Source of the DNA: Chiloscyllium plagiosum
Taxonomy: Eukaryota
Length of the DNA: 62,628 nucleotides
Assembly: GCF_004010195.1 (NCBI RefSeq)
Contig: NC_057718.1
Coordinates: forward strand, 66,750,590-66,813,217
Direction: 5' to 3'
A model generated the notes under the pieces. That model had not been told where the DNA came from, did not search any database, and was given only the letters and a program-made list of their open reading frames with translations. The translations under genes were made by a program, and so were the position numbers. Numbering within the stretch: the first letter of the stretch is position 1; each line of letters begins with the position of its first letter. Positions 16,101-62,628 of the stretch are shown here, piece by piece.

Positions 16101-19100
16101 ATTTGAGTTATAAGGAGAGGTTGAATAGCCTGAGGCTGTTTTCCCTGGAGAGTTGAAGGCTGAGGGGTAACCTTATAAAGGTTTATAAAATCATGAGGGG
16201 CATGTATAGGGTAAATAGACAAAGTCTTTTCCCTGGGGTTGGGAGTCCAGAACTAAACGGCATAGGCTTAGAGGGGAGGGGAAAGATATAAAAGAGTCCT
16301 ACGGGGCAACCTTTTCACGCAAAGGGTGGTGCATTTATGGAACGGGCTGCCAGAGGAAGTGATGGAGGCTGGCTCAATTGCAACATTTAAGAAGCATCTG
16401 CATGGGTATATGAATAGGAAGGGTTTGGAGGGATATGGGACGGGTGCTGGCAGGTGGGACTAGATTAGATTGGGATATCTGGTTGGCGTGGATGAGTTGG
16501 ACCCCATGGTCTGTTTCCATGCTGTACATCTCTATGACTCTATGACTCTAAGTTGTTTCAGTCTGGGAAATAAGGAACTAAAGGCCTTTAGACTAACCTC
16601 TATCAAAGAATGTTTCAAAGAACGAAGAAAAATCTTAATAACAGCAAACAAGCAAACAGCAACATAATTTTAATAATCAGCAAATATCTACCTGTATGTA
16701 GGATTATCATGTAGGCAACAATCTGATGAAATCTGATGTTTTTATCTAGTTGTTTTCTGATATTGCTTCGACAATACTGGGTTAAGAAAGTATATAAGAA
16801 CATTTTAGGTATTAGCTAATAAATTTAGTGAAAAGCATGCCCTACATTTGACAAAGGAGAAAGCTAAATAGTTTTAAGTCACCTCATGAATGCAGTGAAA
16901 TCGTTACCAAGTGATAGAAGTTCAAGATTTTCTTGAAGTTAAGATTCTCTAGTAATCTAATTCCAAAAATCCTGACAAAATGGACGGAATCATCCATTTT
17001 GCAGTTAACATCTGGCATTTGTTGTGGAAGTGGGAGTTACTGGCATCGTCCTTTCTCACATAGTCAGGTCACATGGGATTCAGGGTGAGTTTGCCAATTG
17101 GATGCATAATTGACTTAACAGCAAGAGACAGAGTAATGGTGGAGGGTTGCTTTTCAGAATGGAGGCCTGTGACCAGCAGTGTTCTGCAGAGTTTGGATCT
17201 GGGTCCTCTTTTGTTTGTCATTCACATAAATGATTTAGATGAGAATATAGTTCGTAAGCTTGCAGATGACACCAAAACTGGAGGCATAGTGGACAGTGAA
17301 GAAGGTTTTCTAAGATACAAAGGGATCAAATAGGTCAATGGGCTGAAAAAAGGCACATGGAATTCAATTTAGATAACAGCAATGTATTGCATTTTTGGTA
17401 CAACAAACAAGGGTAGGGCTTATACAATTAATGATCGGGCCTTGGGTAGCGTTGTAGAACGGAGGGACCAAGGGATGCAGGTACATAATTCTTTGAAGTT
17501 TGTGTCACAAAAAGACAGGATGGTTAAAAAGGCATTTGGAACGCTTACCTTCATTGTTCAGTCTTTTATGTGTAGGAGTTGGGAAGTTGTATTGCGGTTG
17601 TGCAGGACATGGTGAGGCCTGTTCTGGAATACTGTGTCCAGTTCTGTACACCCAGTTAGAGGAAGGGGATATTATCAAGCTGGAGAGGGTCCAGACGTGA
17701 TGATTGAGTGTTGCCAGGGTGTTTGCCAGGGTGTTGCTAGATATAGAAGATTTGAGTTGTAAAGAAAGGCTGAATAGGCTGGGACTTTTTTATTGTAGCG
17801 TAGGAGATTGAGAGGCGACCTAAAAGAAGTTTATAAAATAATGAGAGGTATAGGTAGAGTTAATGGTAGTTGTCTTTTGCCAACGATGGGGGTTTTTAAG
17901 ACTAGATAGAATATTTTTAAGGTGAGAGGAGAGAGATTTAAAAAAGATACAAGGGGCAATATTTTTACACAGAGGGTGGTTCGTGTGTGGATTAAATACC
18001 TGAGGAAGTGGTGGATGTGGATATAATTACAACATTTAAAACACATTTGGATAGGTACATGAATAGAAAAGGTTTGGAGGGATATGGATCAAGAGCAGGC
18101 AGGTGAGACTAATTTAGTTTGGAATTATGTTCGGCGTGGACTGGTTGGACCGAAGGATCTGTTTCCATGCTGTGTGATTCTATGACTCTATATCTCTATG
18201 ACAACACGTTACATATGCTGGCAGGGAGAAAACGGTCAATCTTATATGGCCAACAGGCAAAAAGTTCTTACCCCAACTAGGACCTTCTGAAGTTGAAGGG
18301 CACCTGGCCCTTCTCTTACTGCAAGCGAGGAGGGAACATTCAGGCTCTGTTGGTATTCCCGCACAGTGACCAAGCAGCTCAAGATGGCTAGGTCTAGAAT
18401 CCTGCAGTAATGTCCTTGGGCTGAGATAATTGACTTCTAGCAATCACAATTATCTTTATTATGTTTAGAATGACTCCAAACAATGGAGAGACTTGCCACC
18501 AGTTCTGCTGGGGCTCCTTAATACCATATTATGTTGTTAAGTTAAAGACAGTCACTTTCATCTCATCTTTGAAATTCACTTCATGTTTAACTGAAGCTGA
18601 AATGAGGTCAAGAATTGAGTGACATTGCAAAATCCAAACTGAACAGGTTATTGTCTGATGGACCCTTTCTATCACTTTACTGATAATCAAGAATAGAGTG
18701 AGTTAGATGTAAATAATCACTATTTAAAAAAGCAATTTGGCGCTCCTTGAAGTCTTGGCTAGAAGTTATCTATCAATTAAAGAACATGGAGATAATTTGA
18801 ACTTTGAATGATATTTGCTACATTTGCTTATATAAAATGGTTGCAATGCTTCAATTCTAAAAGTAATTCAATTGTTTCACAAAGGCAAGTTCTTTCTTCT
18901 TTATTTTTATCATAATTCAACAGCTCATGCTAATTTACAAATTTCATCTTACCCTCTGGTATACCGTAAGGATTTAACATTTCTATCATTACAGATAAAT
19001 CTAATATATTTGATCTTTTCTGAGTAAAACTATGCCTAACTGTAGCAAAGGGTATAAACCTTAGGGTACTTTGATAAAATGATACGTACATTACACGATC

Positions 19101-19916
19101 CTCTCAAAAGTGAAATCAGATTTCGACTGACTGGCAGCAGAATCAGGAGACTGTTGAAGTTGAGACACATTGCAGATGCTCTTGACCAAGCCAATGCTGA
19201 CTGATAGGAGGAATCAGACAAACATCTCTTGCTTACTACTAAAGGTAGATTAATGGTTCAACTAGATTAAACATAGTGAAATAACAATAACATAACACTT
19301 ACCCCAAGCATTGCTCGGGTATAAATATATGCTGCTTCTTGTTCATACAGGAAGAAAGTATGGAGAAAAAGTAAAGTGTTGACTCCCAACCACAACAACT
19401 GTAACAAAAGAAGTTTTTATTTCACAAACTAGAAAGTCATGGCTTTTCATTTTGCAAGTTTGTCTAATTTATTTTAAATGGATTACTGTGGGGTAGCAAA
19501 TGTTTAAAACATTGCAAAGGAATTTTATTTTAATAATAAATTTTAAATGTGCCCAAGTTAGCAACTAGGTTCACACTTTACTTAATAAACAGATGCAAAT
19601 TAAAACCTTATGGTGTGAATATAATGTATAACATGATGTGCAACCTGTAGCTTTTGCTTTTCAATAATTGATCTAGATTTCTCAAAGAATGCGGTTAGTT
19701 CTGTTTCTTTGTAAACTTTCCAAAACTTACTTAAGCCTATAAAAAAACTAATTAACATTAAAGGTTCAGTGCTAAAGTTAGTTTTATTATTACTTGTAAA
19801 AATGAGTTCAAATATAGACTGATGTAACTCTACAGGAAGCATATTGATGAATTAACAAGTATAAAACTTACTAATATGATAAGCTTTGGACCATCATTCA
19901 CAAACCAGTTTGCCAT
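3973..19916 (-). CDS. NOX3: NADPH oxidase catalytic subunit, NOX3-like; spliced 5' half (coding exons 1-7), continuing beyond window start
   Basis: Seven GT-AG exons (45,96,111,85,146,182,130 nt) join in frame to 265 aa: [265 protein letters not shown]. Heme histidines H101, H115, H206, H219 are present. NOX1-3 family membership is near certain; the NOX3 paralog call rests on recalled diagnostic residues. Confidence 0.85.
7050..7800 (+). mobile_element. Highly decayed LINE remnant, possibly RTE-like endonuclease region
   Basis: Fragmentary resemblance to an APE-domain coding segment; no intact ORF. Confidence 0.3.
8325..8622 (+). mobile_element. HE1-type V-SINE (older copy)
   Basis: tRNA-like head (cagtggttagcactgctgtctcacagc...ggtttgattcc), V-core (gtctgtgtggagttcgcacgttctcccc...ggtttcct), aatct tail. 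Confidence 0.85.
9908..10089 (-). CDS. NOX3: NOX3-like coding exon 6
   Basis: Acceptor tgtatttccag, 182 nt, donor gtaagt; AGVTGIIIT...[11 protein letters not shown]...IHG includes H206 and H219. Confidence 0.95.
10980..11125 (-). CDS. NOX3: NOX3-like coding exon 5
   Basis: Acceptor tcttaacatttag, 146 nt, donor gtatgt; [14 protein letters not shown]...YLNPIRT includes H115. Confidence 0.95.
12428..12630 (+). mobile_element. tRNA-derived SINE, non-HE1 family (also about 26090-26540 and 40310-40620)
   Basis: A/B boxes (cctaatggtaat...gggttcaaaaccc) and a core ggttcactaatgtcctt...ccatccttgtctggt shared by the three copies. Confidence 0.6.
12672..14413. mobile_element. Penelope-like element family A: inverted (minus) copy plus direct (plus) 3' copy, interrupted by a CR1 3' end (13583-13703)
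   Basis: GIY-YIG region on both strands ([16 protein letters not shown]..., FREHLWDT...[12 protein letters not shown]...[17 protein letters not shown]). Decayed hammerhead on minus at about 12735-12758. Confidence 0.85.
14414..14590. mobile_element. Penelope-like family B terminal fold-back palindrome (its left end is split off to 12631-12671)
   Basis: Inverted arms ...gttaaaaatcaca...ggttatagtccaacagg / cctgttgcactataacc...tgtgatttttaac; same family as 45421-45645. Confidence 0.75.
14645..15139 (+). mobile_element. CR1 LINE 3' fragment
   Basis: [14 protein letters not shown]...FKRELD C-terminus plus 3' tail. Confidence 0.85.
15213..16550 (+). mobile_element. CR1 (HER1-like) LINE, 5'-truncated
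   Basis: [40 protein letters not shown]; (ctatgact)n tail. Confidence 0.93.
16692..16776 (-). CDS. NOX3: NOX3-like coding exon 4
   Basis: Acceptor ttcttaacccag, 85 nt, donor gtagat; [16 protein letters not shown] includes heme ligand H101. Confidence 0.95.
17063..18190 (+). mobile_element. CR1 LINE, 5'-truncated
   Basis: [15 protein letters not shown]; ctatgact tail. Confidence 0.9.
19090..19200 (-). CDS. NOX3: NOX3-like coding exon 3
   Basis: Acceptor ctcctatcag, 111 nt, donor gtacgt; [37 protein letters not shown]. The preceding intron is only 102 bp. Confidence 0.95.
19303..19398 (-). CDS. NOX3: NOX3-like coding exon 2
   Basis: Acceptor cttttgttacag, 96 nt, donor gtaagt; LLWLGVN...YTRAMLG. 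Confidence 0.93.
19872..19916 (-). CDS. NOX3: NOX3-like coding exon 1 ([15 protein letters not shown])
   Basis: ATG at 19916 in tcaATGG context with an in-frame TGA two codons upstream; 45 nt; donor GTAAGT. Resembles NOX N-termini (MGNWAVNEG...). Confidence 0.9.
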
Positions 19917-45645: not shown

Positions 45646-45989
45646 CAGATGGATCATGGTGGCCATTTTTGCACTGGGAACATGCATGCTGATATTAGTC
45701 ATACATTTTGTTGAAGCACCTCAGAACAACAATTGCAACCAATTATTATAAACGTTGTTGAACAATTATTCCAATGGAATTTTTATATGTTGTAAAACAT
45801 TGTTTTATTGTCCTATTATCTTCTACATATACCTGTATGTACATATCAAATGTTTGGACCACACTGTTCATTGCTATTATAAAATATGTTTGCCCTTTGG
45901 CAAGTTGTCCACTGTGAACGGTGGAACTTTAAACACCTTGTCGGGAGGAGTGTATGGTGACCATGAAAATATGGATGTCAGGCATCAGG

Positions 45990-46264
45990 TCAATTTTTGT
46001 TACGTCACCAACGGTTGCGGCTATTTGAATGAGAGCCATTGTTAGCGAGGGGCCACAGTCCGCCATTCTCCAAGTAACCGTGCTCGAGGAGGCGACAGTT
46101 AGTCTGGGCGTAACCAACAGGCAAAATATTACCCTTTCTCTTATGATCCGTATTCTGGAAGATAGAGCGCGATTTTGAATTCTTTCCTCGTAGGAAAGGG
46201 AACGAATTCAAAGTAGGTAGTGTTGTTCAGCAGCAAAGTTTGCTGTTTTTTTGCATTTGTTCAG
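45990..46264 (+). promoter_or_regulatory. CpG-rich promoter/5' region of the HCN-like gene
   Basis: Local CpG enrichment in non-repeat DNA. TTACGTCA (CRE-like) 46000-46007, CAACGG 46009-46014 and TAACCG 46075-46080 (MYB-like), TTTGAA 46024 and 46174 (CHR-like), CCGCCATT (YY1) 46060-46067. Confidence 0.6.
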
Positions 46265-46509
46265 ATGGAGGACACTTCGCAAAATGTTCTTAAAAAAAAT
46301 AAAGTTGAGCCAGCAGCAACGACGTTTCTGCTAAACGAAACCTTGAAAGGACGCAGTTTGGGAAAAGCTCGACTGGCCATTCCAGATATCCGTCCTGGGC
46401 TCCGCACGGGATCTGCCGCCTTCCACGGTAGCAAGGCGGCAATGCACAAAGATTACATGAAAGCAATACAAACCGATGAGTTTGCTATCCACCCTTACAG
46501 TACGTTTAG
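46265..46509 (+). CDS. First coding exon of a divergent HCN-like cyclic-nucleotide-gated channel (HCN domain; candidate HCNL family)
   Basis: Encodes MEDTSQNV...IRPGLRTGSAAFHGSKAAMHKDYMKAIQTDEFAIHPYSTF(R). The last 41 aa align without gaps to the recalled HCN1-4 segment [41 protein letters not shown]. Ends TTT AG|gtaaga, the phase-2 intron position of HCN exon 1. Lies in the CpG-rich segment. Confidence 0.8.
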
Positions 46510-46819
46510 GTAAGAGTCTTAAGACCAGTCCAAATGCTTATTTAAAGGCTGAAGAGTTCTAATATGGCGAATGAACAACTGGGAAGAACTGACTATTATT
46601 GAATAGAACAAAAGGCTACTTTGACTTTTTATTATAATGTCACGATGTAACTTATAAAAACACTCACACCGAAAAAACTGTGCTGTATCTCCCATCAACT
46701 GACAGCTGCATAAATTCATGTTTCATACAAAAGCCATCTAGTAGTGCTGGCCGATTGCCTGATTCTACGCTATACGTTTGATATACCTCACCTCAGGACT
46801 CTGGGACACAGGATAAAGT

Positions 46820-47240
46820 CATAGATGTCTGAGTTATATCTATGCACAGCATGCAAACAGACCCTTCAGTCCAACTCGCCCATGCCCACCAGATGTCCTA
46901 ATCCAACCTAGTCCCATTTGCCAGCACCTGGCCCATATCCCTCTTCCTATTCATATACCCATCCAGATGTCTTTTAAATGTTGTAATTGTACTAGCGTCC
47001 AGCACTTCCTCTGGCAGCTCATTCCACAGACCACCCTCTGCATGAAAAAGTTCCCCTTTACGTCCCTTTTAAATTTTTCCCCTCTCACCCTAAACTTGTG
47101 CTTCTAGTTCTGGACTCCGCCACCTCAGGGAAAAGACCTTGTCTATTTACCCTGTCCATGCTCCTCATGATTTTAGAAACCTCTATAAGGTCACCCTCCG
47201 CCTCCAATGCTCTAGGGAAAACAGCCTCAGCCTATTCAGC
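46820..47240 (-). mobile_element. CR1 LINE 3' fragment
   Basis: Reverse complement of CR1 C-terminus and tail. Confidence 0.85.
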
Positions 47241-47996
47241 TCTTTAGTCATGTTTGTTCCACTCTTCACCTTAATGAGAGTATGTTGGCCTTGCATTCAC
47301 ACTTCTTCGTTTTCGAATGACTCCCACTCATGTAGAATTTTCTACAAATACCTACTCCCAGTCTACTTTAGCCAGATCCTGTCTTCTCATGTTAAGATTA
47401 GCCTTACCCCAATTCGTAACTTTGCTTTCAGTCTATGTTTGTCCTTTGTGAAACAATCTTAAATTGTACAGAGTTATGGTCATTCTCACTGAAATGTTCC
47501 CCTGCTGACCTTTCTTCCATTTGCTCGGCTTCGTTTCCTAAAATTAGGTTCAGCAGTGCCCCTTGCCTTGTTGGACTTCCTACAGGCTGGCTCAAAACGC
47601 TGTCTTAAGAATTCCATCCTTCTGAGCCTTTTGCACTTTGTCTATTATAGTTAATATTGGTGAAGTTGAATTCCCTTATTACGTCATAATTTTTCTGAGA
47701 TTTACCTACATATCTGTCCTTTAATGTTTCCTTGATTATTTTGGGAGTCTATAATACTCTTCTAGAAATGTTTCCTGCCCTCCCCCCCCCCCCCATCCCT
47801 CCCGTTTTTTGCTTTGAAGTTCTATCCGTATGCCCTCATCTGAGGAAACTAGTGAAATATAATCCCTCCTTATCAGAGTAAATAATTCCTTGATCAGTAG
47901 TATGACATCACTTCGTCTTTTATACGGCTTCCACGTTCACCTCATATGAAGATTCGATATCCTAAAATATTGAGCTGCCAGTCCTGCATATCTTTC

Positions 47997-48683
47997 TGTA
48001 ATGTTAAAAAATTAAATTGTACTATCTCCCTGGACATTAATGTAATGTTAAAGAGTTAAACTGTACTGTCTTTCTCCAAGAAGCTGAACATTCTGGAAGT
48101 GGTTGGGGGCAACGTTCTGTATCACAGCATGCAAGAATGTGCATAACTATCCATTGTAATTCACACTTCATTTGGGCAGCCATATACTACTATTCTCCTG
48201 CTATTATCAAATTAAACTCTCATTCAGTCCCTTCCATTCAGAAATGCTTTCATATCCATCCCCAGCCAATGAAATTTGTTTGCATGATCGTCCCCCAATA
48301 CTGAAGCACATCACACCTACATTATCTAAGGGAACCACGGAGTCAGGAAATCGTTTGCATAACGATTCCCCAGGATTAGGGCATTTATATTTACATTATC
48401 TCCAAGGATGACCTTATCCTACCATTGCACCTAGCGTAACATGTGGTTATTGCGTGGGGAGGGAGGAATGGCCAGAGTACCTGTGAGCATTACCAACTGA
48501 CTTGAATAAAGGGGATGTGTTTTCTTTGTTCAGGGCCTCTTTTGACTCAACTTTGCATGCATGCGAAGAGTGTCAAAGGGGATCATCTAGCTTGTACAGG
48601 CTTTAATAAACTTTAGTTGTTTGCAGAAGTTGGTGTGTGCAAATTGCATCTCGTGTGTGAAATCTCGGGAAAAGAACCTAACA
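47997..48683 (+). mobile_element. Solo LTR (about 687 bp) inserted in an old minus-strand CR1
   Basis: TGTAA...TAACA termini; AATAAA at about 48605; tttc/cttc flanks; first ~35 bp duplicated at 48041; host resumes on both sides. Confidence 0.65.
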
Positions 48684-49067
48684 CTTCAGCCATATCTCCG
48701 TGACAGCAGTGGTCTCATATTCCAATGTATAAATCCATATTCTCAACACACCTGCTTTACTCACAAGATTCCCTGCATTCAGATAAATGCCATCTAGCCT
48801 TGCAATTCTCCCTTGCACCTTGACTGGATATGGTCTGTCTTCCAGATGGACTTGTTTATTTCCCTCTGTACCATATTCTATTCCCCAGCCAAAGTAGTTT
48901 AAGCCACACTAACAGCATGAGCAAATTCCACTTCACCCACAATGATATTGGTCTTGTCCCAGTTCAGATGCAACTTCCCTGGAGATTGATCTAGTGATCT
49001 GGGAATCTAAAGCCTCCTGTATCAGCTCTTCAGCCACACATTCACCAGCTGTACCCACCTATTCCGA

Positions 49068-49279
49068 CAGGTTGTTCTGTTGTAACATGACAGTTCCGTT
49101 GCATTGTAGCCTCGCGCTATAGAAAATCTCGCAATGGAAAACCACTATAGAAAATCGTGCTGTAGAAGATCACTATGGAAAATCACTATACCCGATCAGT
49201 ACAAAGTTCCCGTTATCCAAACAGCCTCCACAATTTATCGATCACATTATAGCCAATTCGCATATACCAGAATGACTTG
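49068..49279 (+). mobile_element. Tc1/mariner (Tigger-like) MITE
   Basis: Degenerate CAGGT(T/C)GTTCTG TIRs; TA at the right end; internal ~14-bp ctatagaaaatc repeats; sister copy at 53914-54112 in opposite orientation. Confidence 0.6.
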
Positions 49280-50225
49280 TATACTCACAAGAAAATGGCA
49301 CTAGGAGTTGTCAGGAGATTACAACATACTTTTCAATCTGCTACCTCAATCCCTGCATTTCTGTTGCAGGACTTCTATCTACATCATTGGTTCCTATGTG
49401 AACCCTATGATCTCTGACCCTTCAGAGTGTCTTGCAGGCATTCAGTGACAGCTTTGACCTTGGTCCAAAGCAAGCAACATGCTATTCTGGAATTGCGTCA
49501 TAGCCCACAGAAATACATGTCAGTACCCTCGCTATTGAGTCTTTTGCCACTATTGTTCTTCTCCTTCTCCTCACCCTTTGTGCAGCTAGACCCTGGCTCA
49601 GGTTCTTCAGAGGAACTATTTTTCAACACAAAGAAACTTTTCTTGAGTGAGATACACTCTAGAACTTGTCCCCTGCCTTTTTTCTTTTAACTGATGGTCA
49701 CCCTTCCTTCTCTGACTGCACTTCCTTAAGCTGCAGAATGACTACATCTAAAAACATGTTATCCATATAGCTCTTAACTTTGCAGCTACAATACTGTGCT
49801 TCTAGTTGACTTTCAAGCACTGAAATGTGATGCTCAAGTTGGTCAAACTGAAGACACTTCCTGTAGATGTGGTCATCCAGACTACAAAGGGACTGCAGGC
49901 CATGCAACACATAGATCTGAGTTCACCACCATATCTTTAGTTAAAATACACTATCTCAACCATAGGGACTTGGAAAAAAAGGACTTCCTAGTGGCACTGG
50001 AATCCACCTGAAAGACAATGGACTTACAGAAGAAAGCCAGCAGACCATATGACAGACAGTAGCACCAACACTAAGCAGAAAGACAGAAGGGAACACTCCG
50101 AACACACTAGAAAGGAAAGCCCTGGAAGGACTCAGAAAAGAGAAATATCGTAATCGTTTAGGCAACAAAGGGTGCGTGACTGTCATCCTGAACAGAACAC
50201 AATACATTGATAAAGCAAACACACT

Positions 50226-51860
50226 TTGCATCAGTGTTCACTGAGGAGCGGAACATGGTGAATGTTGAGATTAGAGACAGAAGTTTGATTAGGCTGGATC
50301 ATGTTGGCAAAAGTAGGGAAGATGTGTTGGGTATGCTAGAGGTTATTAAGGTGGACAAATCCTCAAGACCAGATGGGATCTATCCCAGGTTGCTGAGGGA
50401 GGCAAGAGAGGAAATAGCTGGGGTCCTGACAGATATCTTTGTGGCATCCTTAAATACAGGTGAGGTGCCGGAGGACTGGAAGGTTGCTCATGTTGTCCCC
50501 TGTACAAGAAAGGTAGTAGGGATATTCCAGGTAACTACAGACCACTGACCCTGATGTCGGTGGTGGGGAAGTTGCTGGAGAGGGCACTGAGAGATAGGAT
50601 CTATTCATATTTAGAAAAGAATGAGCTTATCAGTGATAGGCAACATAGTTTTGTGCGGGGAGATCTTGCCTTACCAACTTAATAGAGTTCTTCGAGGAAG
50701 TGACCAAGTTGTTAGATGAATGAAAGGGCTGTTGATGTCATATACATTTAGTAAGGCGTTTGATAAGGTTCCCTATTATAGACTAATGGAGAAAGTGAAG
50801 TCACATGGTGTGCAGGGTGTTCTAGCAAGATGGAGAAAGAACTGGTTGAGCAACAGGTGACAGAGAGTGTAGTTGAAGGGAGTTTCTCGAAATGGAGAAA
50901 GGTTACCGGTGGTGTTCCACAGGGGTCAGTTTTGGGTTCACTGTTGTTTGTAGTATACATAAATGATCTAGAAGAGGGCTCTGTTGGTATGAACAGCAAG
51001 TTTGCAGATGACACAAAGATTGGTGGAGTAGCAGAAAGCATAAGGGACTGTCAGAGAGCACAGGAGGATATAGATAGACTGGAGAGTTGGGTGGAAAAGT
51101 GGCAGATGGCTTTCAATCCAGACAAATGTGAGGTGATGCATTTTGGCAAGTCTAATTCTAGAGCGAATTATACAATGAATGGAAGAGCCTTGGGAAAAGT
51201 TGATGGGCACAGAGATCTGGGAGTGCAGGTCCATTGTACCCTGAAGGTTGATGCACAAGTGGATAGAGTGGTCAAGAAGACATATAGTATGCTTGCCTTC
51301 ATTGGACGGGTTATTGAGTATGAGAGTTGGCAAGTCATGTTAAAATTGTACAAGACATTGGTTTGGCCGCATTTAGAATACTGTGTACAGTTCTGGTCAC
51401 TACATTACCAAAAGGATGTGGACGCTTTGGAGAGGGTGCAAAGAAGGTTTACGAGGATGTTGCCTCGTAAGGAGATTGAGAGGGGACCTTATTGAGGTTT
51501 ACAAAATCATGGAGGGTATAGACAGGGTGGATAGAGACAAGCTTTTTCCCAGGGTGAAGGATTCAATAACAAGAGGTCATGCTTTCAAGGTGAGAGGTGG
51601 AAAGTTTAAGGGGGATACACGTGGCAAATACTTCACACAGAGGTGGCAGGTGTTTGGAACGCATTGCCAGCAGAGGTGGTAGAGGCAGGCACAGTGGATT
51701 CATTTAAGCTGCGACTGGACAGATACATGAGTAGGTGGGGAGCAGAGGGATACAAATGTTTAGGAATTGACCGACAGGTTTAGACAGTACATTTGGATTG
51801 GCTCAGGCTTGGAGGGCTGAAGGGCCTGTTCCTGGGCTGTAAATTTTCTTTGTTCTTTGT
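50226..51860 (+). mobile_element. CR1 LINE nested in the Penelope element
   Basis: [32 protein letters not shown]; (ttctttg)n tail. Confidence 0.93.
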
Positions 51861-52545
51861 ACTACTCACAGATGCTGATACCTACCAACAGCTGGTGATG
51901 GACCCGACTCCATAGCTAGAAAACCATATTACAGCATTCCCTAAGGAAACTTCACAAGACGGATGAAATTAACAAGACAGACATCCAAAGAATGAAACCT
52001 GAAGGATCCAACACACCCCGTTTCTACGGATTACCAAAGGTACGTAAACAGGGGGCCCCGTCAGACCCATAGTCTCACTGATACAATGACATACAGACTA
52101 GCAAAGGAACTGCAATGCAAACTGAAACACCTAGTGGAAGACTCAAGCCACTCCATCCACTCCAACCAGGAATTCCTTAACATCATCAAAGACACCAAGG
52201 TAGAGGATGACGAGGTCATGGTTTCATTCGACGTGACAGCCCTATGCACATCAATAAACATCATCCTAGCCAAAGAAACACTGGCCTCACTGCTAGACAA
52301 ATCAAACACCTGACAGCACCAGTTCCATCACCAAGGACAGCATCTTCAACCTGGTAGACCTGTGCCTCACAACTTACTTCACCTTCAATGACAAGACCTA
52401 CGAGCAAATCAATAGGGTGTCTAAGAGGACTCTTAGCAGAAGCAGTTATGTAGAGGTTGAAATGAACTGCCCTTCCCACGATCCAGCCCAAACTTTGGGT
52501 CTGCTATGTGAGTGACGCCTTTGTCATCACGAAACGCAATAAATT

Positions 52546-52863
52546 AGATTAGATTAGATTAGATTACAGTGTGGAAACAGGCCCTTCAGCCCAACAAGTC
52601 CACACCGACCCGCCGAAGCGAAACCCACCCATACCCCTACATTTACCCCTTACCTAACACTACGGGCAATTTAGCATGGCCAATTCACCTGACCTGCACA
52701 TCTTTTGGATGGTGGGAGGAAACCGGAGCACCCGGAGGAAACCCACGCAGACACGGGGAGAACGTGCAAACTCCACACAGTCAGTCGCCTGAGGCGGGAA
52801 TTGAACCCGGGTCTCTGGCACTGTGAGGCAGCAGTGCTAACCACTGTGCCACCGTGCCGCCCA
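52546..52863 (-). mobile_element. HE1-type V-SINE, young
   Basis: Reverse complement of full HE1; (gatta)n tail. Confidence 0.95.
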
Positions 52864-52967
52864 CAAACCCATTAGAAGAAACCCACAAACACATAAACAA
52901 CATCCTTACCGGTATAAAGTTCACCAAAGAGGAAGAGAACAACAACAGACTCCCCTACTGGGGGGAA

Positions 52968-53106
52968 GACATTTTGGGCATAAGCCCTTCATCAGGAACG
53001 AAGCCTCATTTCTGATGAAGGGCTTATGCCTGAAACATCGATTCGCCTGCTCCTCGGATGTTGCCTGACCTGCTGTGCTTTGCCAGCACCACACTCTTGA
53101 TCTGAT
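52968..53106. mobile_element. Family A terminal palindrome with two opposed hammerhead motifs
   Basis: tcatcag 52989-52995 (minus); CTGATGA 53012-53018, GGGC-ttat-GCCT, GAAA 53032-53035 (plus). Confidence 0.8.
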
Positions 53107-53690
53107 AAGTACAGTCCGTCGACTCCTACACAACAGACCTAAACAAGAAGACACAGCACACCCAGAAACTCTAGCCACCCTTCCATACATTAAAGATATC
53201 TCGGAGGTGACAACGAGACTATTCCGGCCCCTAGCATCATGGTAGCCCACCACACTGAAACAGCTCCTGAATGAGTTTAAAGGACCCTGTAGCAACAATT
53301 AGCAGAATGAATGTTGATACAAAAATACCCTGCAAGGACTACAACAAACATTACATTTGACAAATGGGCAGGAAACTAGACACCAGGATACATGAGCACC
53401 AAGTAGCCACCAAAAGACATAACCATCTATCACTAGTATCTATAAACACTGATGAAGAGGGACACGAGTTCAATTGGGACAATACATCCATACTGGGACA
53501 GGATAAACAAAGACATGAATGGGAATTCCTAGAGGCCCGGCCTTCAAACTGGAACTCCATTAGCAAATGTATCGATTTGGACCCCACTAACCAACCTCTC
53601 AGAAAAAGAACTGTAAGTGATATCACCCACCACAACAGACCAAGATAGATAAATAGCAAGTGGGACAGAACACCAGTGCTTCATTGGAGA

Positions 53691-53732
53691 CTCACTGATG
53701 ATGTTACCTATCATGGTGACGAAACATCTGAG
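53691..53732 (+). ncRNA. Minimal type-I hammerhead ribozyme motif at the 3' end of the Poseidon-type element
   Basis: Stem I ctca/tgag; CTGATGA 53695-53701; stem II GTTACC-tatcat-GGTGAC; GAAA 53721-53724; CATC (probably a CpG-decayed CGTC). Confidence 0.7.
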
Positions 53733-53913
53733 AACAAATCTACCAGCTCAGTGAGCAAACTTACAATCTAATCCACAACCTCAGCTACAATGTTCTCCAA
53801 AATTGCAAAAACTTATCTTAAATTTAAGCCATGTAAAAAATTATTTAAGTTCCTTTATTGTTTAAGAAAAAGAATCTGGAATTCTTAGCTTTCCATAAAT
53901 TAGCTTTAAATTA

Positions 53914-54112
53914 CAGGCCTTCTGCTATACTGCATGTTTCGTCAGCGCAAATTGGCTATAACAAGATTCTTGAATTGTGGACGTTGTTTGGATAATGCGA
54001 GCTTTCTACAAAAGAGTATAGCGAATTTCTACTAGCGATCTCATACAATGCGATTTTCTATAGCGCAAGGTTGCAGAGGAACACAACTGTCAGGTTAAAG
54101 CAGAACAACCGG
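53914..54112 (-). mobile_element. Tc1/mariner (Tigger-like) MITE, sister of 49068-49279
   Basis: Reverse-complement similarity over ~200 bp; TA at the left end. Confidence 0.6.
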
Positions 54113-56234
54113 CAGAGAGAAAAACAACTTATTGACTGCCATCAATAAGCTTCTTGCTTTGCACTTTCACCAGCCTTTTCAAATGTAAGAAAGGTTCCTC
54201 TTGAGGTTAGGTACTGCTGCAATTGGCTCAATTTCTTGTTCCTATTGTCACTGGTTTTATAGCCCCAAACTCCTCTGTAATTGTGGTCTTTTTCACTCTG
54301 GTTGTATAGCCTGAACTCCTCTGATCACCCACTCTCCTTCATGGTGGTTATAAGGCCCCAAAACCCTCTCCTTATTTCTTGTAATGGTGTGTTCACGTTA
54401 CCCCCTCCTCTCAGTGATGTTGACTGTCATCGGCTCCTTACCTCACTCCTCATCTCAGTGATGCTGATGCCTATCTCGGGGTCCTCACCTTGCTTGCTCA
54501 TCTTCCATTTATTTCAGCTCCACACTTTGCCTTACTCTTTCTATTTCTTCACTGTGTTCTTCTTACCTCTTTCAAATGGTTTACTCCATTGGTTTACTCA
54601 GTCTTGCCTTTTCTTTGTTTTATTCCACTCTGCCTCACTCTATTCTAATGCTGAACCTCTCCATTTTCTGGGAACCACTTTCAGGCCCAGTCTATTTTAT
54701 GTTGGGAAGTTGGACAGATACTTGAATTTTCTTTCTAAGCCTCCTAAAGTGATGCAGTAATATTTACACATCTAGAGAGATTTAGATATTTATGACAAAT
54801 GCAACTGCATTTGCCTCATATTTCATTTAATATCTTAGGTGGAACTTATTTAATTTGTTGATCATTGTTGCCTTTCAGACTTTTGGAGTCATGCTGGTTT
54901 TGAGTCATGTGGAATACTTCTTTGAATGCTTCCTACATTATGCTGACAGTTTTATCTATTAATCACTCAGACGAGTTTACTGTGGTAATTCTCAATCTTC
55001 AAAGTTCTCTGTCATTAAGTTTATAATCCTGATTTGCAGTTTATCCTCTCCGTCTCAAATCTAATATACAATTGATCAATACGATCACTTTTCACAACGT
55101 GATCACCATATATTACTTGTCACTCAGTGTAGTACCCTTGTCAAATCAAAAATATATTTGGGAGAATTTTCACCTCTCTGGTATGATGTAGCCATTAGCA
55201 AGTAAGTTGTGAAAAGTATGACAAGAAAAATTAGAATTCACGGTTGAGGAAAGATTAAGCAATTTTCCCCGTAAGCTTTAAATAGTGACTTCAGAACCTT
55301 GCTAATGAGCAGCAATTCCCTTATTTCCATACCACTTCCAAATCTGCTGTCCTTCCCTGAGTATGTAGCTGGCCCAAGACCCCGAGATGAAATTAGATTG
55401 GTACTGAGTAGCTGCAGATCATCACTTGCTTGGTCTGGCCATCAATTAACCATTTATGAAGCATAAAACCCTGTATGCTCCATGGTCCCCATCCGCTTTG
55501 ATCCTTCGTTCACTCAAGTTGGCATTGACAAACCACCAAAGACCTGACCACCATGGTTGCTCTTGAACCAACTCTCAAACCACTTAAGCTTTTCAACACT
55601 TGATTTTGCAGTTCAGGGACACCTATGACTTCATTGCTTTACCCAGGTAGCTTTGTGCCCAGAGATACACTTGCATCTCATGCTTCTGCATTCAAGGCAT
55701 ACAGTATGCAAACAAGGGCTTAAAGCTTGCTTTCTTAGTGCTCACATAATTTGTGCTTACTTGGAAGCTGCTACCCTCTGTGTTTTGCAATGCATTTTAC
55801 TGCATAGGATCTTTAGTGCTTATTTACATGTTGTCAGCATCTGGGTGGCATTGTTTATTATTGTTAAGAGTCTTCAGTGGTCAATTACAGGCTGTGAGCT
55901 TCTGTGATTTGCAATACTCTTTTATACAGAGGGAAAGACAGATCATTTTTCACAATAAGGAGCACTGAATAGTCAAGGGGTGAATATAGTACAGTATTGC
56001 ACCAGGCTACATCCATGTTGGAACTGCAACATATGTCAACAGCTTGTGTGGGGTAGACACTGTCTGAAAATCAAAGGGAACTAGTCTCGGGTGGGGTGAA
56101 GGCGATTACAGTTAGCTAAGGGTTACTGTCACATTTAGTCAAGGGGTTTGACTAATTCCATTCTAGGGAGTTGTTCACAGTCAATCAGACAAGTACTTAG
56201 TCCTACCAGAGTCTGGGATCTGTGTTGTAGAACT

Positions 56235-56315
56235 GTTCTGCAGAACAGTCACTGGACCTGAAAGATTCACGCTGCTTTCTCTCCACAGATACTGCCAGAC
56301 CTGCTCAATTTCTCA
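56235..56315 (+). mobile_element. Decayed Penelope terminal repeat (fourth family) with degenerate hammerhead
   Basis: ctgcagaacagtcactggacctgaaag...ctccacagatactgccagacctgct; related to the reverse complement of 20708-20808. Confidence 0.5.
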
Positions 56316-57345
56316 AATGTTTAAGCACCTTTTATCTACCCCATACCCAAAACCCTGTATGCCACTGGTAATCTGAAAGCTACCATCCCCTACCTTAAAC
56401 ATACTCAAAGACTGTGTTTCCATGGCCCTTTTGTGGTCAGGAATTCCAAAGGTTCACAATCCTCTCTGTAAGAAAAAATCTTCAAATTCTCCTCATCGTG
56501 GGCCTAAGTGGCATTATCACTTATTTTTAAATTGTACCATCTGGTTTTAGAATTCCCAACGAGGGGAAACATTTTAACTGCATTTACCCTGTACATCCCT
56601 TCAAGTATTTTGCAAGTTTCAATGAGATCATCTCTCATTATTTGAAACTTAGAGAAAGCAGGTCAGGTTTGCCCATTCTCTCTTCATAGGATAGGATGCA
56701 CTGCCTTTATAACAGTAATATCTTTCCTGAGATAAGGAGACCAAAACTGCACATAGTACTCTAGGTGTGGTCTAACCAACTCCTACACAATTAAAGCAAT
56801 TCAGTACTCCATCTACAATGTTCTTACCTTTCACTAAGCCTGTCTAAATCCTCCTGAAACTGCTTAACATCTCGCTCAGTATACACATTCCTACATAGTT
56901 TTAAATCATCTGCAACTTTGGAAATATTACATTTGGTCCCCAACTCTAGATTCTATGTAATAATATGTGGATATATATGCCACTGAGGGCCAATTACTGA
57001 TCCTTGCAGTACTCCAAAAGTCACAGCCTTCCAGCACAAGAATGAACCATTTCTTCCTACTGTCTTCTCTGTTAGCTAATCATTTCTCTATGCCAGTACA
57101 TTAACTCTTGTCCCATGTACTTTTGATTTTTCTCACCAATATCCTGTGACGGCTTTATGAAAAATCTTTTGAGAATCTACGTATACTACATCCATCAACT
57201 CTCCTTTATAAACTTTGTTAGTAACATCATCAAAAAATTCCACAGGTATGTAAAACATGATTTACTATTCAAAACTCCATCCTGACTATGTCCAATCAGA
57301 TCATTAACGACCAGGTGTCCATTTATTCCCATACTTTATAATAGA

Positions 57346-58945
57346 TTATGTTGTTAAGGAGAATACTGTGATACAGGCTACTGGCATACAAGTGATTGAG
57401 GTTCACAAGGAGAAGGTGTTAGCTATTCTGGCAAGTGTGAAAATAGATTAAACCCCATGGCCGGAAGGGATTTATCATAGGATTCTCTGGGAAGCCAGGG
57501 AAGAGTTTGCAGCGCCTTTGGCTGTGATCTATATATATGTCATCATTGTCTACAGGAATTGTGCCAGAAGACTGGAGGATAGCAAATGTTCCCTGTTCAA
57601 GAAGGGGAGTAGAGACAACTATAGAAATTATAGACCGGTGAGCCTTACTTCGGTTGTGGGTAAAGTGTTGGAAAAGGTTATAAGACATGGGATTTATAAT
57701 CATTTAGAAAGGAATGATTTGATTAGGGATAGTCAACATGGTTTTGTGAAGGGTAGGTCGTGCCTCACAAACCTTATTGAGTTCTTTGTGAAGGTGACCA
57801 AACAGGTGGATGAAGGTAAAGCGGTTGATGTGGTGTATAGGGATTTTGGTAATGCATTTGATAATGTTCCCCACAGTAAGCTATTGTACAAAATATGGAG
57901 GCATGGGATTGAGGGTGATTTAGTAGTTTGGATCAGAAATTGGCTAGCTGAAAGAAGACAGAGGGTGGTGGTTGATTGGAAATGTTCATCCTGGAGTTCA
58001 GTTACTAGTGATATACCGCAACAATCTGTTTTGGGTCCACTACTGTTTGCCATTTTTATAAATGATCTGGATGAGGGCATGGCAGGATGGGTTAGTGAAT
58101 TTGCGGATGACACTGAGGTTGGTGAAATTGTGGACAGAGCGGAAGGATGTTGCAGATTACAAAGGGGACATAGATAAGCTGCAGAGGTGGGCTGAGTGGT
58201 GGCAAATGAAGTTTAATATGGAAAAGTGTGAGGTGATTCACTTTGGAAGGAGCAACAGTAATGTGGAGTACTGGGCTATTGGTAAGATCCTTGGTAGTGT
58301 AGATGAGCAGAGAGATCTCAGTGTCCATATATATATGTATAGATGCCTGAAAGTTTCCACCTAGGCTGATAGAGTTGTTAAGAAGGCATACGGTGTGTTA
58401 ACTTTTATTAGTAGAGGGAAAACACTCTAGTGCAGCTGCACTTGGAGTATGGCATACAGTTCTGGTCACCGCATTATAGGCAGGATGTGGAAGCTTTGGA
58501 AAGGGTTCAGAGGCGATTTACGAGGATGTTGCCTGGTATGGAGGGAAGGTCTTATGAGGAAAGGCTGAGAGACTTGAGGCTGTTTTCATTAGAGAGAAAA
58601 AAGTTGAGAGGTGACTTATTTGAGACATATAAGATAGTCAGAGGGTTAGATAGGGTGGACAGTAAGAGCCTTTTTGCTCAGATGGCTAGCACGAGTGAAC
58701 GTAGCTTTAAATTGAGGAGTTATAGATATGGGACAGATGTCAGAGTAGTTTCTTTACTCAGCGAGTAATAGAGGTGTGGAACGCCCTGCCTGCGCCAACT
58801 TTAAAAGTATTTAAATGGTCATTGAATAAACATATGGATGAAAATGAAATAGTCTAGGATAGAAAGGCTTCAGATTGCTTTCACAGGTTGGCACAATATT
58901 GAGGGCCAAAGGGCCTGTACTGCGCTCTAATGTTCTATATCCTAT
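57346..58945 (+). mobile_element. CR1 LINE, same subfamily as 37155-39015
   Basis: NYRPVSLTSVVGK, QHGFVKGRSCLTNL, FADDT. Confidence 0.93.
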
Positions 58946-60729
58946 GTAGATTCTAACTTTTTCCCTATGACGGATTTAAGGCTAACAGATCTGCAGTTTC
59001 CTGTTTTCTCTTTTACTGTCTTCTTAAAAGGTGAGGTAATATTTGCAACATCTTAATCTGCAGGAATCATTCTAGAATCTGTATAATTTGGGAAGATAGT
59101 CATCAATACTTTGACTGTCTGTTTAGCCACCTTTTTCAACACTGGGAATTTATCAACTTTCACCCTCACTAATTTCTCCAGTACAATTTTCTTGTTAATG
59201 CCATATTCCTTCAACTCATTCTCCCTAGTGAGTTAAATCTCTGGTCTTGGGAATTTTCTTCCTCAATGAAAACAGATACAAAATAATCATTTAGCTTCTC
59301 TTTATTCCTTATTATAAAATGTCCTTTGTATTGGGCCCACATTTGATTGAGGCAAACGTTTCCTTTTTATTCGCATATAAAAGCTTTTGCTGTTTATTTT
59401 TATGTTTTTGATAGATTGCATTCATATTCTGTTCTCCCTTTCCTTATCAGTTCTTGGCCCTTCTTTGATGTATTCTATAAACCTCCTAATCCTCAAATTT
59501 ATTGTTAATCCTGATAATTTAATAGGCATCTTCTTTTACTCTTATACAATCCTGAACTTATTTGGTAGCCATAATTGACTGAACGTTTTTGAGTTTTGTG
59601 CTTTGAAGGAACAGTTGCTGTAAGCCATGTTCTTCAAAGACTATCCATTGTCTTTGTGTAGTCATGTCTTTTAGTATATTTTCTCAATTCACCACTGCCG
59701 TAATGCCTTTATTAAAATTAATACCCTTTCTTCAGAATTAATGACTTCACTTTCAAACATAAAGCTCTATCATTTGTGGTCACTCACCCCTAATGACTTT
59801 TTTTAATATCAAGGTTATAAATGAGCTCTTTTTCAATACATCCTATTAGATCTAAAATAACATGACCTCTGGTTGATTCCTCAACATACTGTTCCAGAAT
59901 ACACTCAAAAAACTCCTCCACAACTTCAGTGCTCACCTGGTTTGCCCAGTCTATATGCAGATTGAGGGCATCCTGTGATAGTTTTGCCCATGCTATATAC
60001 TTCTGTCATCTCCTGATTAATATCATGTGACAGTGCAACTACTATTTGGTAGATTATAAATAATTCCAGTCAATATCTGCTGCCACTTGCTGTTTCTTTC
60101 TCCATCCAAACAGATTCCACACACTATTCTTCCAATCTGAAATCCTCCCTTACTAATGTATCAGTCCTATCCTTTACTATCAACACAACTCCACCTTATT
60201 TTCCTTTTTGTCTATCCTTCCTAAATAACTCCACTGAGGTTGGTATTCTGTCACCAAGTCATCCTTTATTTATACAGGGAAAGTCCTTGACTCTGGCATA
60301 GCTTTGTCAGAGTCAGCACCCAGAGTGTCAGAATCTCTGCCCCTGTTTTTATCTGTGAGGTAGAGTTGCCCGATTGGACCAGAATAACAGCCTCAATCTG
60401 AACACGCATATTTTACAATCTCCAGACTAAATATCGAATATCCTTAAATGTTTAGTTCCCAGTTATGGTTACCATGCGGCTATGGTTCTGTATTGACAAT
60501 TAGTCATACCCATGTATCTTTATTTGTGCTTTAAATCATCTGCCTTCATGTGAATAGCTTTGTCTTTTAGACATCATTCCACTTTAGGATTTTTTCAACT
60601 TCTGTTACCAATTTTACTTGTTCCTAAATTGGACTACCCTTCCTGTTCACATAAAGCTGACAAGCCAGCTTAAGCCCACCTGAACAGCATTAGCAAATCT
60701 CACTTTGAGGATATCACTCCCACCCTAGG

Positions 60730-61024
60730 ATAGGGAAATGCAAAACTAGAGAGCATATATTTATGGTCAGAGGAGAAAGATTTAAAAGGGACCCGATGGG
60801 GCTTTTTCACACAGGGTGTTTTGTATGTGGAATGAACTGCCACAGGAAATAGTAGGCACAGGTACAGTTTTAACATTTAAAAGATCTTTGGACAGGTGCA
60901 TAAATAGACAATGTTTAGAGGAATATGGGTCAAATGCAGGCAAGTGGGACTAGTTTGGGAAACTTGGTCAGCATGGACGAATTGGACTGAAAGGTCTGTT
61001 TCCGTGCTATATGACTCTATGACA
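60730..61024 (+). mobile_element. CR1 3' end
   Basis: CR1 C-terminus plus ctatgact tail. Confidence 0.8.
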
Positions 61025-61444
61025 CTCTTATTAAAGTGTAACCCATCCGGCTTGTACAGGCCCTAGGTGCCCCAGAAACCTGATGCCATCTCGTCTACAC
61101 CAGTTCTTCAGCCATGCATTCATTCTGTTTGTATGCTCATGGGAGTAATCCTGAGATTATCTTTCTTGAGGTCCTGCTTTTTAATTTCCTTCCTAACTGT
61201 CTAGAATCTGCCTGGGGGACCGCATCCTTCTTCCTATCTATATTGTTGATATCTGTGTGGACTGTGACTTCAGGCTGATCTGTTACCTCTGAAAGATGTC
61301 CTAGAGCTGCCTCATGACATCCTTGACCCTGGCACCAGGAAGAAAACACACTGTTCTGGAGTCACATTTACTGTCATAGATGTGCCTGTCTGATCTCCTG
61401 ACTCTGGATTCTATAAAAATATTGCTCTTCCATTCTTCTTCCCA

Positions 61445-62628
61445 AATATTGATTGGAAGCTCTTTAGATCAAGTAGATTGGACGGGGCAATGTTTGTGCA
61501 GTGTGTCCAGGAAGCTTTTCTAACTCGTATGTAGATTGTCCGACCAGAGGGGAGGCCATATTGGATTTGGTACTCGGTAACGAACCGGGACAAGTGATGG
61601 GCTTGTTAGTGGGTGAGCATTTTGGTGATGGTGACCACAATTCTGTGAAATAGAAGAGGTCTTGAATGATTACGTTTCTTCAGCATTTACAAATGAGAGG
61701 GACCGTATTGTTGAAGAGGAGAGTATGAAATGGACAGGAAAGCTAGAGGAGATACTTGTTAGGAAGGAAGATGTGTTGGGCATTTTGAAAAACTTGAGGA
61801 TAAACATGTCCCCCAGGCCTGACGGGATATATCCTAGGATTATGTGGGAAGCAAGAGAGGAAATTGCAGAGCCCTTGGCAATGATCTTTTCGTCTTCACT
61901 GTCAATGGGCGTGGTACCAGGGGACTGGAAAGTGGCGAATGTTGTGCCCCTGTTCAAAAAAAGGAATAGGGATAACCCCGGGAATTACAGGCCAGTTAGT
62001 CTTACTTCTGTGGTAGGCAATGTAATGGAAAGGGTACTGAGGGATAGGATTTGAGTATCTGGAAAGACACTGCTTGATTAGGGACAGCCAGCATGGATTT
62101 GTGGGGGTAGGTCTTGCCTTAGAAGTCTTATTGAATTCTTTGAGGAGGTGACCAAGCATGTGGATGAGGGTAGAGCAGTGGATGTAGTGTACGTGGATTT
62201 TAGTAAGGCATTTGATCAGTTTCCCCATGGTAGGCGTATGCGGAAAGTCAGGAGGCATGGGATAGAGGGAGGTTTGGCCAGTTGGATAGAGAACTGGCTA
62301 ACCGGTCAAAGTCAGAGTGGTGGTAGATAGTAAATATTCAGCCTGGAGCCCAGTTACAAGTGGAGTTCCGCAGGGATCAGCTCTGGGTCCTCTGCTGTTT
62401 GTAACTTTTATTAATGACTTGGAAGAGGGAGTCGATGGGTGGGTCAGTAAATTTGTAGATGATACGAAGATTGGTGGAGTTGTGGATAGTGAGGAGGGCT
62501 GTTGTCGGGTGCAAAGGGACTTAGGTATGATGCAGAGCTGGGCTGAGGAGTGGCAGATGGAGTTCAACCCTGTCAAGTGTGAGGTTGTCCATTTTGGAAG
62601 GACAAATAAGAATGCGGAATACAGGGTT
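61445..62628 (+). mobile_element. CR1 LINE, internally deleted near 61650, running off the window end
   Basis: Endonuclease end (ILDLVL...GDHN), then PDGIYPR, NYRPVSLTSVVG, DFSKAFD, GVPQGSALGP, FVDDTK. Confidence 0.92.

Follow-up and report, generated by a model that had tools for sequence, protein, structure and literature searches.

The locus and its gene

The window, a stretch of 62,628 nucleotides of contig C9 of the Chiloscyllium plagiosum genome, holds the first coding exon of an HCN-like channel gene (Table 1). The exon is 245 nt long, that is, 81 codons started by ATG plus 2 nt, and frame 1 is its sole open frame. Its boundaries read ttcag/ATG and TTTAG/gtaaga, with the AG/gtaaga donor in phase 2. 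The HCN-domain spacing PG-x4-S-x4-GS-x2-A-x15-IHPYSxFR is matched exactly. The first-pass annotation had described a coding exon in CpG-rich DNA with this spacing and donor, had placed its end where exon 1 of HCN1-4 ends, and had counted about 13 of 41 residues identical to HCN1-4. The description holds: the CpG observed/expected ratio of the exon is 1.02, the end falls at the same codon and in the same phase, and 12–14 of the last 42 residues are identical to those of four canonical HCN proteins. Pfam Ion_trans_N matches the exon with an E value of 5e-5 and 23.2 bits, under the curated cut-off of 27. One relative (P0009) has an N-terminal extension of 79 residues, for which no match was found upstream of exon 1 here. 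The CpG ratio over the whole window is 0.28, and the six top CpG tiles among 614 tiles of 600 bp include or adjoin the exon 1 stretch, at a G+C content of only 46–47%.

Table 1. Features of the window and of the gene that continues beyond it (window positions unless a contig is given).
Feature	Position	Strand	Remarks
First coding exon	46265..46509	+	encodes a short N-terminus plus the HCN domain (residues 1-81 of the 552-aa HCN-like protein); ends in phase 2
Pyrimidine tract and cag acceptor	46245..46264	+	directly 5' of the ATG, not noted in the first-pass annotation; candidate for an upstream non-coding exon
CpG-rich stretch	45930..46530	.	likely promoter/5' region (predicted); o/e 0.92, GC 46%
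Intron 1	46510..62628 (window part)	+	donor gtaaga; runs 5.8 kb beyond the window to exon 2, G000:C9:66819044
Cryptic exon in interspersed repeat, intron 1	51872..52039	+	acceptor 51872 joined to 46509 in RNA-type contigs; 3' end 52039 (AAG/gtacgt) candidate only
Exons 2-10	C9:66819044-67098052	+	found by search with full-length relative
NADPH-oxidase 5' exons	19303-19398, about 19090-19200, 9925-10092	-	further exons before the start of the window, as far as G000:C9:66697244

Exon 1 is single-copy in the genome, and self-comparison of the fetched DNA gave no second matching stretch. Five shark proteins cover 100% of it with 57–61% identity (E 4e-21 to 7e-20). These end-to-end matches, together with nine downstream exons that continue the frame, place the exon beyond chance. 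To call it hidden was an overstatement, since RefSeq/UniRef already list its relatives under the names 'HCN1-like' or 'HCN2-like'.

The S1-S6 and CNBD exons expected downstream were recovered by a genome search with the full-length relative XP_038664312 (P0010), which from its accession we take to be a catshark protein. The nine exons lie on the same strand of C9, from 66,819,044 to 67,098,052. All nine introns of the ten-exon model are AG/GT, and their phases chain as 2,0,0,0,0,1,0,0,1. The open reading frame of 552 codons (1659 nt) extends over 300 kb with zero internal stops. An HCN domain, S1-S6, a C-linker and a CNBD in a single reading frame place the product in the HCN/CNBD superfamily. 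The closest solved structures of P0010 are HCN1, HCN4 and HCN3 (E 1e-129), and its AlphaFold model shows six transmembrane helices, a C-linker and a CNBD (pLDDT 75.7, pTM 0.59). The window protein is 85, 81 and 74% identical to three elasmobranch relatives, 44% to the gar and 43% to the coelacanth protein, 37–38% to HCN1/2 and 27% to zebrafish HCNL1. The exon very probably opens an intact gene of a third HCN-like subfamily. Intron 9 of this gene measures 144 kb (G000:C9:66953642-67097846); no nested gene was noticed among the candidate exons listed for its fetched part.

The gene lies head-to-head with an NADPH-oxidase (NOX) gene about 27 kb away, beyond which TFB1M-type and TIAM-type genes follow. 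The oxidase matches Pfam Ferric_reduct (E 2e-10), and NOX2 is its best solved match. It is probably NOX3, because the gene order matches the human order TIAM2-TFB1M-NOX3. On another contig, a canonical HCN gene also stands head-to-head with a NOX-family gene, about 230 kb apart (G000:C40:5.63-5.65 Mb and 5.88-6.13 Mb).

Transcripts were sought in three of five contig sets guessed to be RNA, in a further contig run of 2025 and in the raw reads of two single-cell runs. The RNA nature of the contig runs is a guess, none being on record as RNA, and the five sets have small shares (0.14–0.21). All three RNA-guess runs, which carry two organism labels, come from two studies and have a depth of 3–6, cover 46330-46509, and the match ends exactly at the 46509 donor. 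The contig of the fourth run reads on into intron 1, as DNA would. Sequence past the donor could be read in two of these runs, and in both it matches window 51872-51895, which follows a good acceptor within an interspersed repeat. Both junctions from 46509 to 51872 encode Arg-Cys-stop, that is, a stop after two codons. The junction foreseen at 46509 was therefore found in part: the donor is used in RNA-type contigs, but the two junctions read are both non-productive, and no productive exon 1-2 junction was seen among them. In the sampled 2% and 6% of the two raw single-cell RNA runs, no read fell on exon 1. The repeat around the cryptic exon contains an open reading frame (51996-52310) that has no Pfam match and matches only unnamed Atlas clusters; a motif in it would fit a retroelement reverse transcriptase.

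A sister clade of HCNL1/2

About 290 relatives were pooled from protein searches and a profile-library search. Three trees were built, namely FastTree with 62 proteins and two gene models, IQ-TREE with 42 rows, and a tree of the 37 rows left once five long or aberrant ones were dropped. The choice of rows favoured full-length and diverse proteins; near-identical HCN1-4 and multi-repeat channels were left out. Zebrafish HCNL1 (QKM75727) and an hcn5 protein were identified by look-up. All three trees show two sister clades, A and B, outside HCN1-4. Clade A comprises HCNL1, hcn5, a sturgeon protein, a second HCN-like gene of this genome on contig C12, and the shark, ray and chimaera relatives of that gene. 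Clade B comprises the window gene and proteins of sharks, skates, coelacanth, sturgeon, gar, electric eel and other teleosts. IQ-TREE support is 100/100 for clade B, 100/99 for clade A and 100/100 for A plus B, unchanged in the 37-row tree. The stem of the elasmobranch members of clade B is long (0.9 changes per column) and is followed by strong conservation. Two divergent proteins that group with the coelacanth may be amphibian. P0281, P0204 and P0198 of clade B, and P0162 and P0176 of clade A, are divergent and show further erosion of S4 and filter.

AU tests reject the placement of clade B with HCN1-4 (p 8e-6). A tree that groups ray-finned HCNL1/2 with the window gene and its orthologs in elasmobranchs is rejected too (p 4e-8). 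Four canonical HCN loci with textbook S4 lie elsewhere in the genome (C1, C31, C40 and C73254), and the pore exon, retrieved for three of them, encodes CIGYG in each. The gene is thus a divergent paralog that does not nest in HCN1-4, as had been proposed from exon 1. The suspected kinship to fish HCN-like channels is correct insofar as HCNL1/2 are the closest characterised relatives, but the gene belongs to their sister clade. Its classification as an HCNL-type proton channel is not supported, the Met of S4 position 3 being Lys, the grouping being rejected and the HCNL1/2 counterpart being the C12 gene. An exclusively chondrichthyan lineage is contradicted by the coelacanth, sturgeon, gar and teleost members.

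The long stems of both clades called for characters that do not depend on substitution rate, and indels and introns were checked as such. One additional residue after the filter occurs in 14/15 rows of clade B and 11/13 of clade A, and in none of 11 HCN1-4 rows with data or 21 invertebrate-type rows. A one-residue shortening of the CNBD occurs in 15/15 and 11/13 rows of clades B and A, in 0/12 HCN1-4 rows and in one of 21 invertebrate-type rows. Three introns (after S2, after S3 and after the pore loop) are common to the C9 and C12 genes and absent from the canonical loci examined. By these comparisons the window gene is assigned to an unnamed sister subfamily of HCNL1/2. The HCN-like group split in two before the divergence of cartilaginous and bony fishes, and cartilaginous fishes carry both branches.

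Clade B relatives are already in the databases, under automatic names of the 'HCN1-like' type only. The models XP_038664312, XP_072361734, XP_032880942, XP_055495961, gar XP_015208558, electric eel XP_026879744, coelacanth H3AFD4 and sturgeon RXM36088, named 'HCN1-like', 'HCN2-like' or 'HCN4', all fall in this clade (100/100). The bony ones differ from the window protein in keeping the S2 Phe, a charged S4 position 8 and GYG, SYG or NYG. No publication on the subfamily was found in the literature searched, which lay largely outside subscription journals.

According to the cited passages of Wobig et al. 2020 (PMC7306766), HCNL1/2, the hyperpolarisation-activated proton channels of fish, have 49 orthologs, all from fish and in two groups, their signature is a Met that interrupts the S4 series at position 3, and all HCNL2 carry it. 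The window protein resembles HCNL1 and HCNL2 (hcn5) in its short N- and C-termini, its non-canonical filter and the two common indels, besides being their sister in all three trees. It differs in having Lys for the S4 Met and shares 27–28% identity with HCNL1 and hcn5. The loci differ as well, with TIAM-type, TFB1M-type and NOX genes here and CFAP91 for clade A.

The second HCN-like gene (G000:C12:48741701-48846659, L032-L043) was modelled with ten exons, and 627 codons are stop-free up to a further donor. It has the same ten-exon layout and phases as the window gene, and the two proteins are 34% identical. Its filter is GNSYG, its S4 reads K-R-Y-R-S-Q-Q-S-R-K with an uncharged position 3 (Tyr), and its S2 plug position is Tyr. 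CFAP91 lies 57 kb downstream, and the same linkage occurs in a sturgeon clade A record that is a fused model with the source label UNVERIFIED_CONTAM. This gene is the genome's HCNL1/2 counterpart, and is predicted to be a better candidate for a cartilaginous-fish proton channel than the window gene. HCNL1 had been introduced as an adaptation to fresh water, within a fish subfamily of two members. Cartilaginous fishes have an HCNL1/2 counterpart, whose S4 position 3 is uncharged, and in addition a branch not described before.

TIAM-type and NOX genes occur on both C9 and C12, but those on C12 are 27 and 11 Mb from the HCN-like gene. About 86 kb upstream of the HCN-like gene on C12 there is a Popeye gene, with paralogs on C3, not C9. 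This partial evidence is only suggestive of C9 and C12 as ohnolog regions from the two rounds of duplication. The single marker to hand for synteny of clade B, TERF1, a neighbour of the electric-eel member, lends it no support, as TERF1 maps to C4 and C17 and not to C9. A saposin match in the sturgeon clade B model proved to be a low-complexity repeat. Four Popeye-domain matches have identical score and frame length (G000:C5:40183111, C12:18041746, C12:48655154 and C101772:13166) and are possibly assembly duplicates.

Anatomy of the encoded channel

Residues are compared here by human HCN1 numbering. The S4 series of the window protein is R-R-K-R-S-R-R-N-R-R, that of HCN1-4 is R-R-R-K-S-R-R-R-R-H, and that of HCNL1 is K-R-M-R-S-R-R-K-R. 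The S4 arginine series, which was to be inspected along with the pore, is thus largely kept, including Ser at position 5, but has Lys at position 3 and Asn at position 8. Position 3 (Lys204) is Lys in 5/5 elasmobranch rows, the coelacanth, both gars and three teleosts. Of the 13 clade A rows, 11 have Met, Leu or Tyr here; the other two, which align poorly, have Lys and Leu. The arginine lost at position 8 is the R273 equivalent (Asn219), which is Ser in two relatives.

The S2 plug position, F186, is occupied by Ser128, and reads S/T/A/A/A across the five full-length elasmobranch rows. It is Phe in 12/12 HCN1-4 rows, in 20/21 invertebrate-type rows (one has Tyr) and in those bony rows of clade B that were inspected. 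HCNL1 likewise keeps the S2 Phe (F96). The GYG looked for in the pore is absent: the filter is CLDYA at 303-307, where HCN1-4 have CIGYG, and both filter glycines are gone. CLDY is invariant in 5/5 full-length elasmobranch rows, with CLDYG in two relatives. Bony members of clade B have GYG (coelacanth), SYG or NYG, the last in gar and teleosts together with an intact sensor. Across the clade the third filter residue varies among D, N, S and G, and the last glycine between G and A.

Equivalents of S272 (S218), W281 (W227), D183, D189 and R549 (R494) are kept as in HCN1-4, as is the C-helix Arg of the CNBD. R273, N300 (Tyr245), F109 (Gly) and T550 (Glu) are substituted. These changes, like those of the S2 plug and the filter, fall on the long elasmobranch stem. 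The retained CNBD arginine is another difference from HCNL1, where it is lost. Identity to the three elasmobranchs is 91/89/78% for S5-S6, 88/83/78% for S1-S4 and 81–93% for the C-linker. The protein has the domain order of HCN1-4 and the end codon and phase of their exon 1, but lacks their CIGYG filter, S2 Phe, unbroken S4 series and long C-terminal tail, and its gene has three extra introns. With HCNL1/2 it has in common the absence of a canonical CIGYG, and it departs from them in S4 Met, orthology and the CNBD-arginine loss of HCNL1. In effect, the shark and skate protein is a natural, conserved mutant at F109, F186, R273, N300, both filter glycines and T550, and would bear on how voltage sensors are sealed, on gating polarity and on whether an HCN pore without GYG conducts.

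The inner end of S4 also resembles Hv1 in the run Arg-x-x-Arg-x-x-Asn. Hv1 has Asn at the fourth S4 position and requires an S1 aspartate. It has no pore domain, and the window protein has no acidic residue in the membrane part of S1; moreover, two relatives have Ser in place of the Asn.

Proposed conduction and its alternatives

The reading we favour, at a probability of about 40%, is that this intact gene of the third subfamily encodes a voltage-gated channel with a silent pore, in which ions pass through an unplugged voltage sensor. The S4 charge series with its helix-break serine (S218) and W227 suggests that hyperpolarisation pulls S4 down, as it does in HCN. With both filter glycines lost, K+-type conduction by the pore would be unlikely. 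In the down state Ser128, in place of the plug Phe, may face S4 Ser210 and leave a small polar gap through which protons or small cations could pass. The HCN1 counterpart of Ser210, S264, is reportedly level with F186 in the down state of a cross-linked structure. Such a gap, made by an S2 serine, would be another recipe than the S4 methionine of HCNL1. Nucleotide gating would probably be weak or altered, as R494 is followed by Glu instead of Thr.

Published work bears on several of these steps. Passages of PMC6904216 describe F186 of HCN as a hydrophobic plug, accessible from inside in the down state, and S272 as a residue whose polarity governs hyperpolarisation gating. The relevant part of PMC7306766 reports that Kv and HCN4 pores fall silent when the first glycine of the filter is replaced by Ser (G-to-S), that HCNL1 conducts through its voltage sensor, and that its M169R mutant loses the proton current. 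The Lys at S4 position 3 resembles M169R and thus counts against a path through the sensor. Both spHCN F186C and HCNL1 F96A remain ordinary channels, and the passages concerned report no leak upon substitution of the Phe. For F290A, no report of an omega current was found in the literature searched. The bulky change N370W leaves spHCN channels partly open at positive voltage (PMC7078272, in the passage cited); the equivalent N300 position is Tyr245 here, which makes the gating polarity uncertain. Bony members of clade B keep the S2 Phe and the full S4, so the unplugged sensor cannot be a mechanism of the whole subfamily. The non-productive RNA junctions, with no exon 1-2 junction seen, also count against the favoured reading.

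Remodelling of the central pore and a silent subunit are close rivals of the leak through the sensor. In the first, the same gene of the same subfamily would conduct through a pore with a ring of Asp305 in its C-L-D-Y filter, non-selective or permeable to Na+/Ca2+, and gated by voltage and perhaps cyclic nucleotides. S5-S6 is as conserved as S1-S4, unlike the variable pore of HCNL1, which fits a working pore and speaks against a silent one. Elasmobranchs show high conservation of the pore helix and S5-S6, CLDY does not vary in their five full-length rows, R494 and the C-helix Arg are retained, and the coelacanth member keeps GYG. The order x-L-acidic resembles the TLESW/TLDDW filters of NavAb/CavAb (PMC4692491, in the part cited), if its presumed positional match to GYG is right. 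That likeness is only three residues long, however, and the P2 helix and its Trp are missing. Variation of the filter at the D/N/S/G and G/A positions within clade B is what relaxed selection predicts, and the loss of the S2 Phe is left unexplained. We consider a remodelled pore somewhat unlikely, though a serious candidate.

Alternatively, the protein may be an electrically silent subunit or a voltage-sensing scaffold that assembles with HCN1-4 or the C12 protein and tunes or suppresses them. Its degenerate filter and the lack of a gap at S4 position 3 leave neither known conduction path present. Gar and teleost members combine NYG with an intact sensor, and the C-linker is well conserved among elasmobranchs. 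HCN4 subunits with CISYG act as dominant negatives, according to a passage of PMC7306766. The low identity to the proposed partners, at 37–38% for HCN1/2 and 34% for the C12 protein, does not favour this role, and the long elasmobranch stem with conservation after it points to a separate, new function. Overall this role appears unlikely.

It is improbable that the gene is decaying or has no productive expression, with its transcripts diverted into the repeat-derived stop exon. Both readable junctions from 46509 lead there, and exon 1 gave no reads in the sampled parts of the two single-cell runs. Yet the contig depth is just 3–6 and the tissues of the runs are not given. The reading frame is unbroken across 300 kb and its splice sites are canonical, full-length models are present in sharks and skates, and the window gene is 85% identical to its catshark ortholog, where the C12 gene reaches 79% with its own. 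That the gene is the shark ortholog of HCNL1/2 and the same kind of proton channel is largely refuted and very improbable: short termini, a non-CIGYG filter and common indels and introns agree with it, but S4 position 3 has neither Met nor another gap, the AU test rejects the grouping, and it is the CFAP91-linked C12 gene, with Tyr at position 3, that groups with HCNL1/2.

The preferred leak through the sensor can be set in a wider frame, with two ancestral HCN-like subfamilies of jawed vertebrates besides HCN1-4, and with the shark and skate copy having independently become voltage-sensor-conducting (proton or omega) by loss of the S2 Phe plug rather than of an S4 arginine. Taken as a whole this is possible but doubtful. 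If true, S2-plug loss would add, in marine animals, a third natural design by which voltage sensors conduct, next to those of Hv1 and HCNL1.

In the genome search, long single-exon matches with 25–27% identity over the channel core were also obtained at G000:C1:90078107, C15:1922026, C6:99871245 and C6:117922984. These four are probably CNG channel genes.
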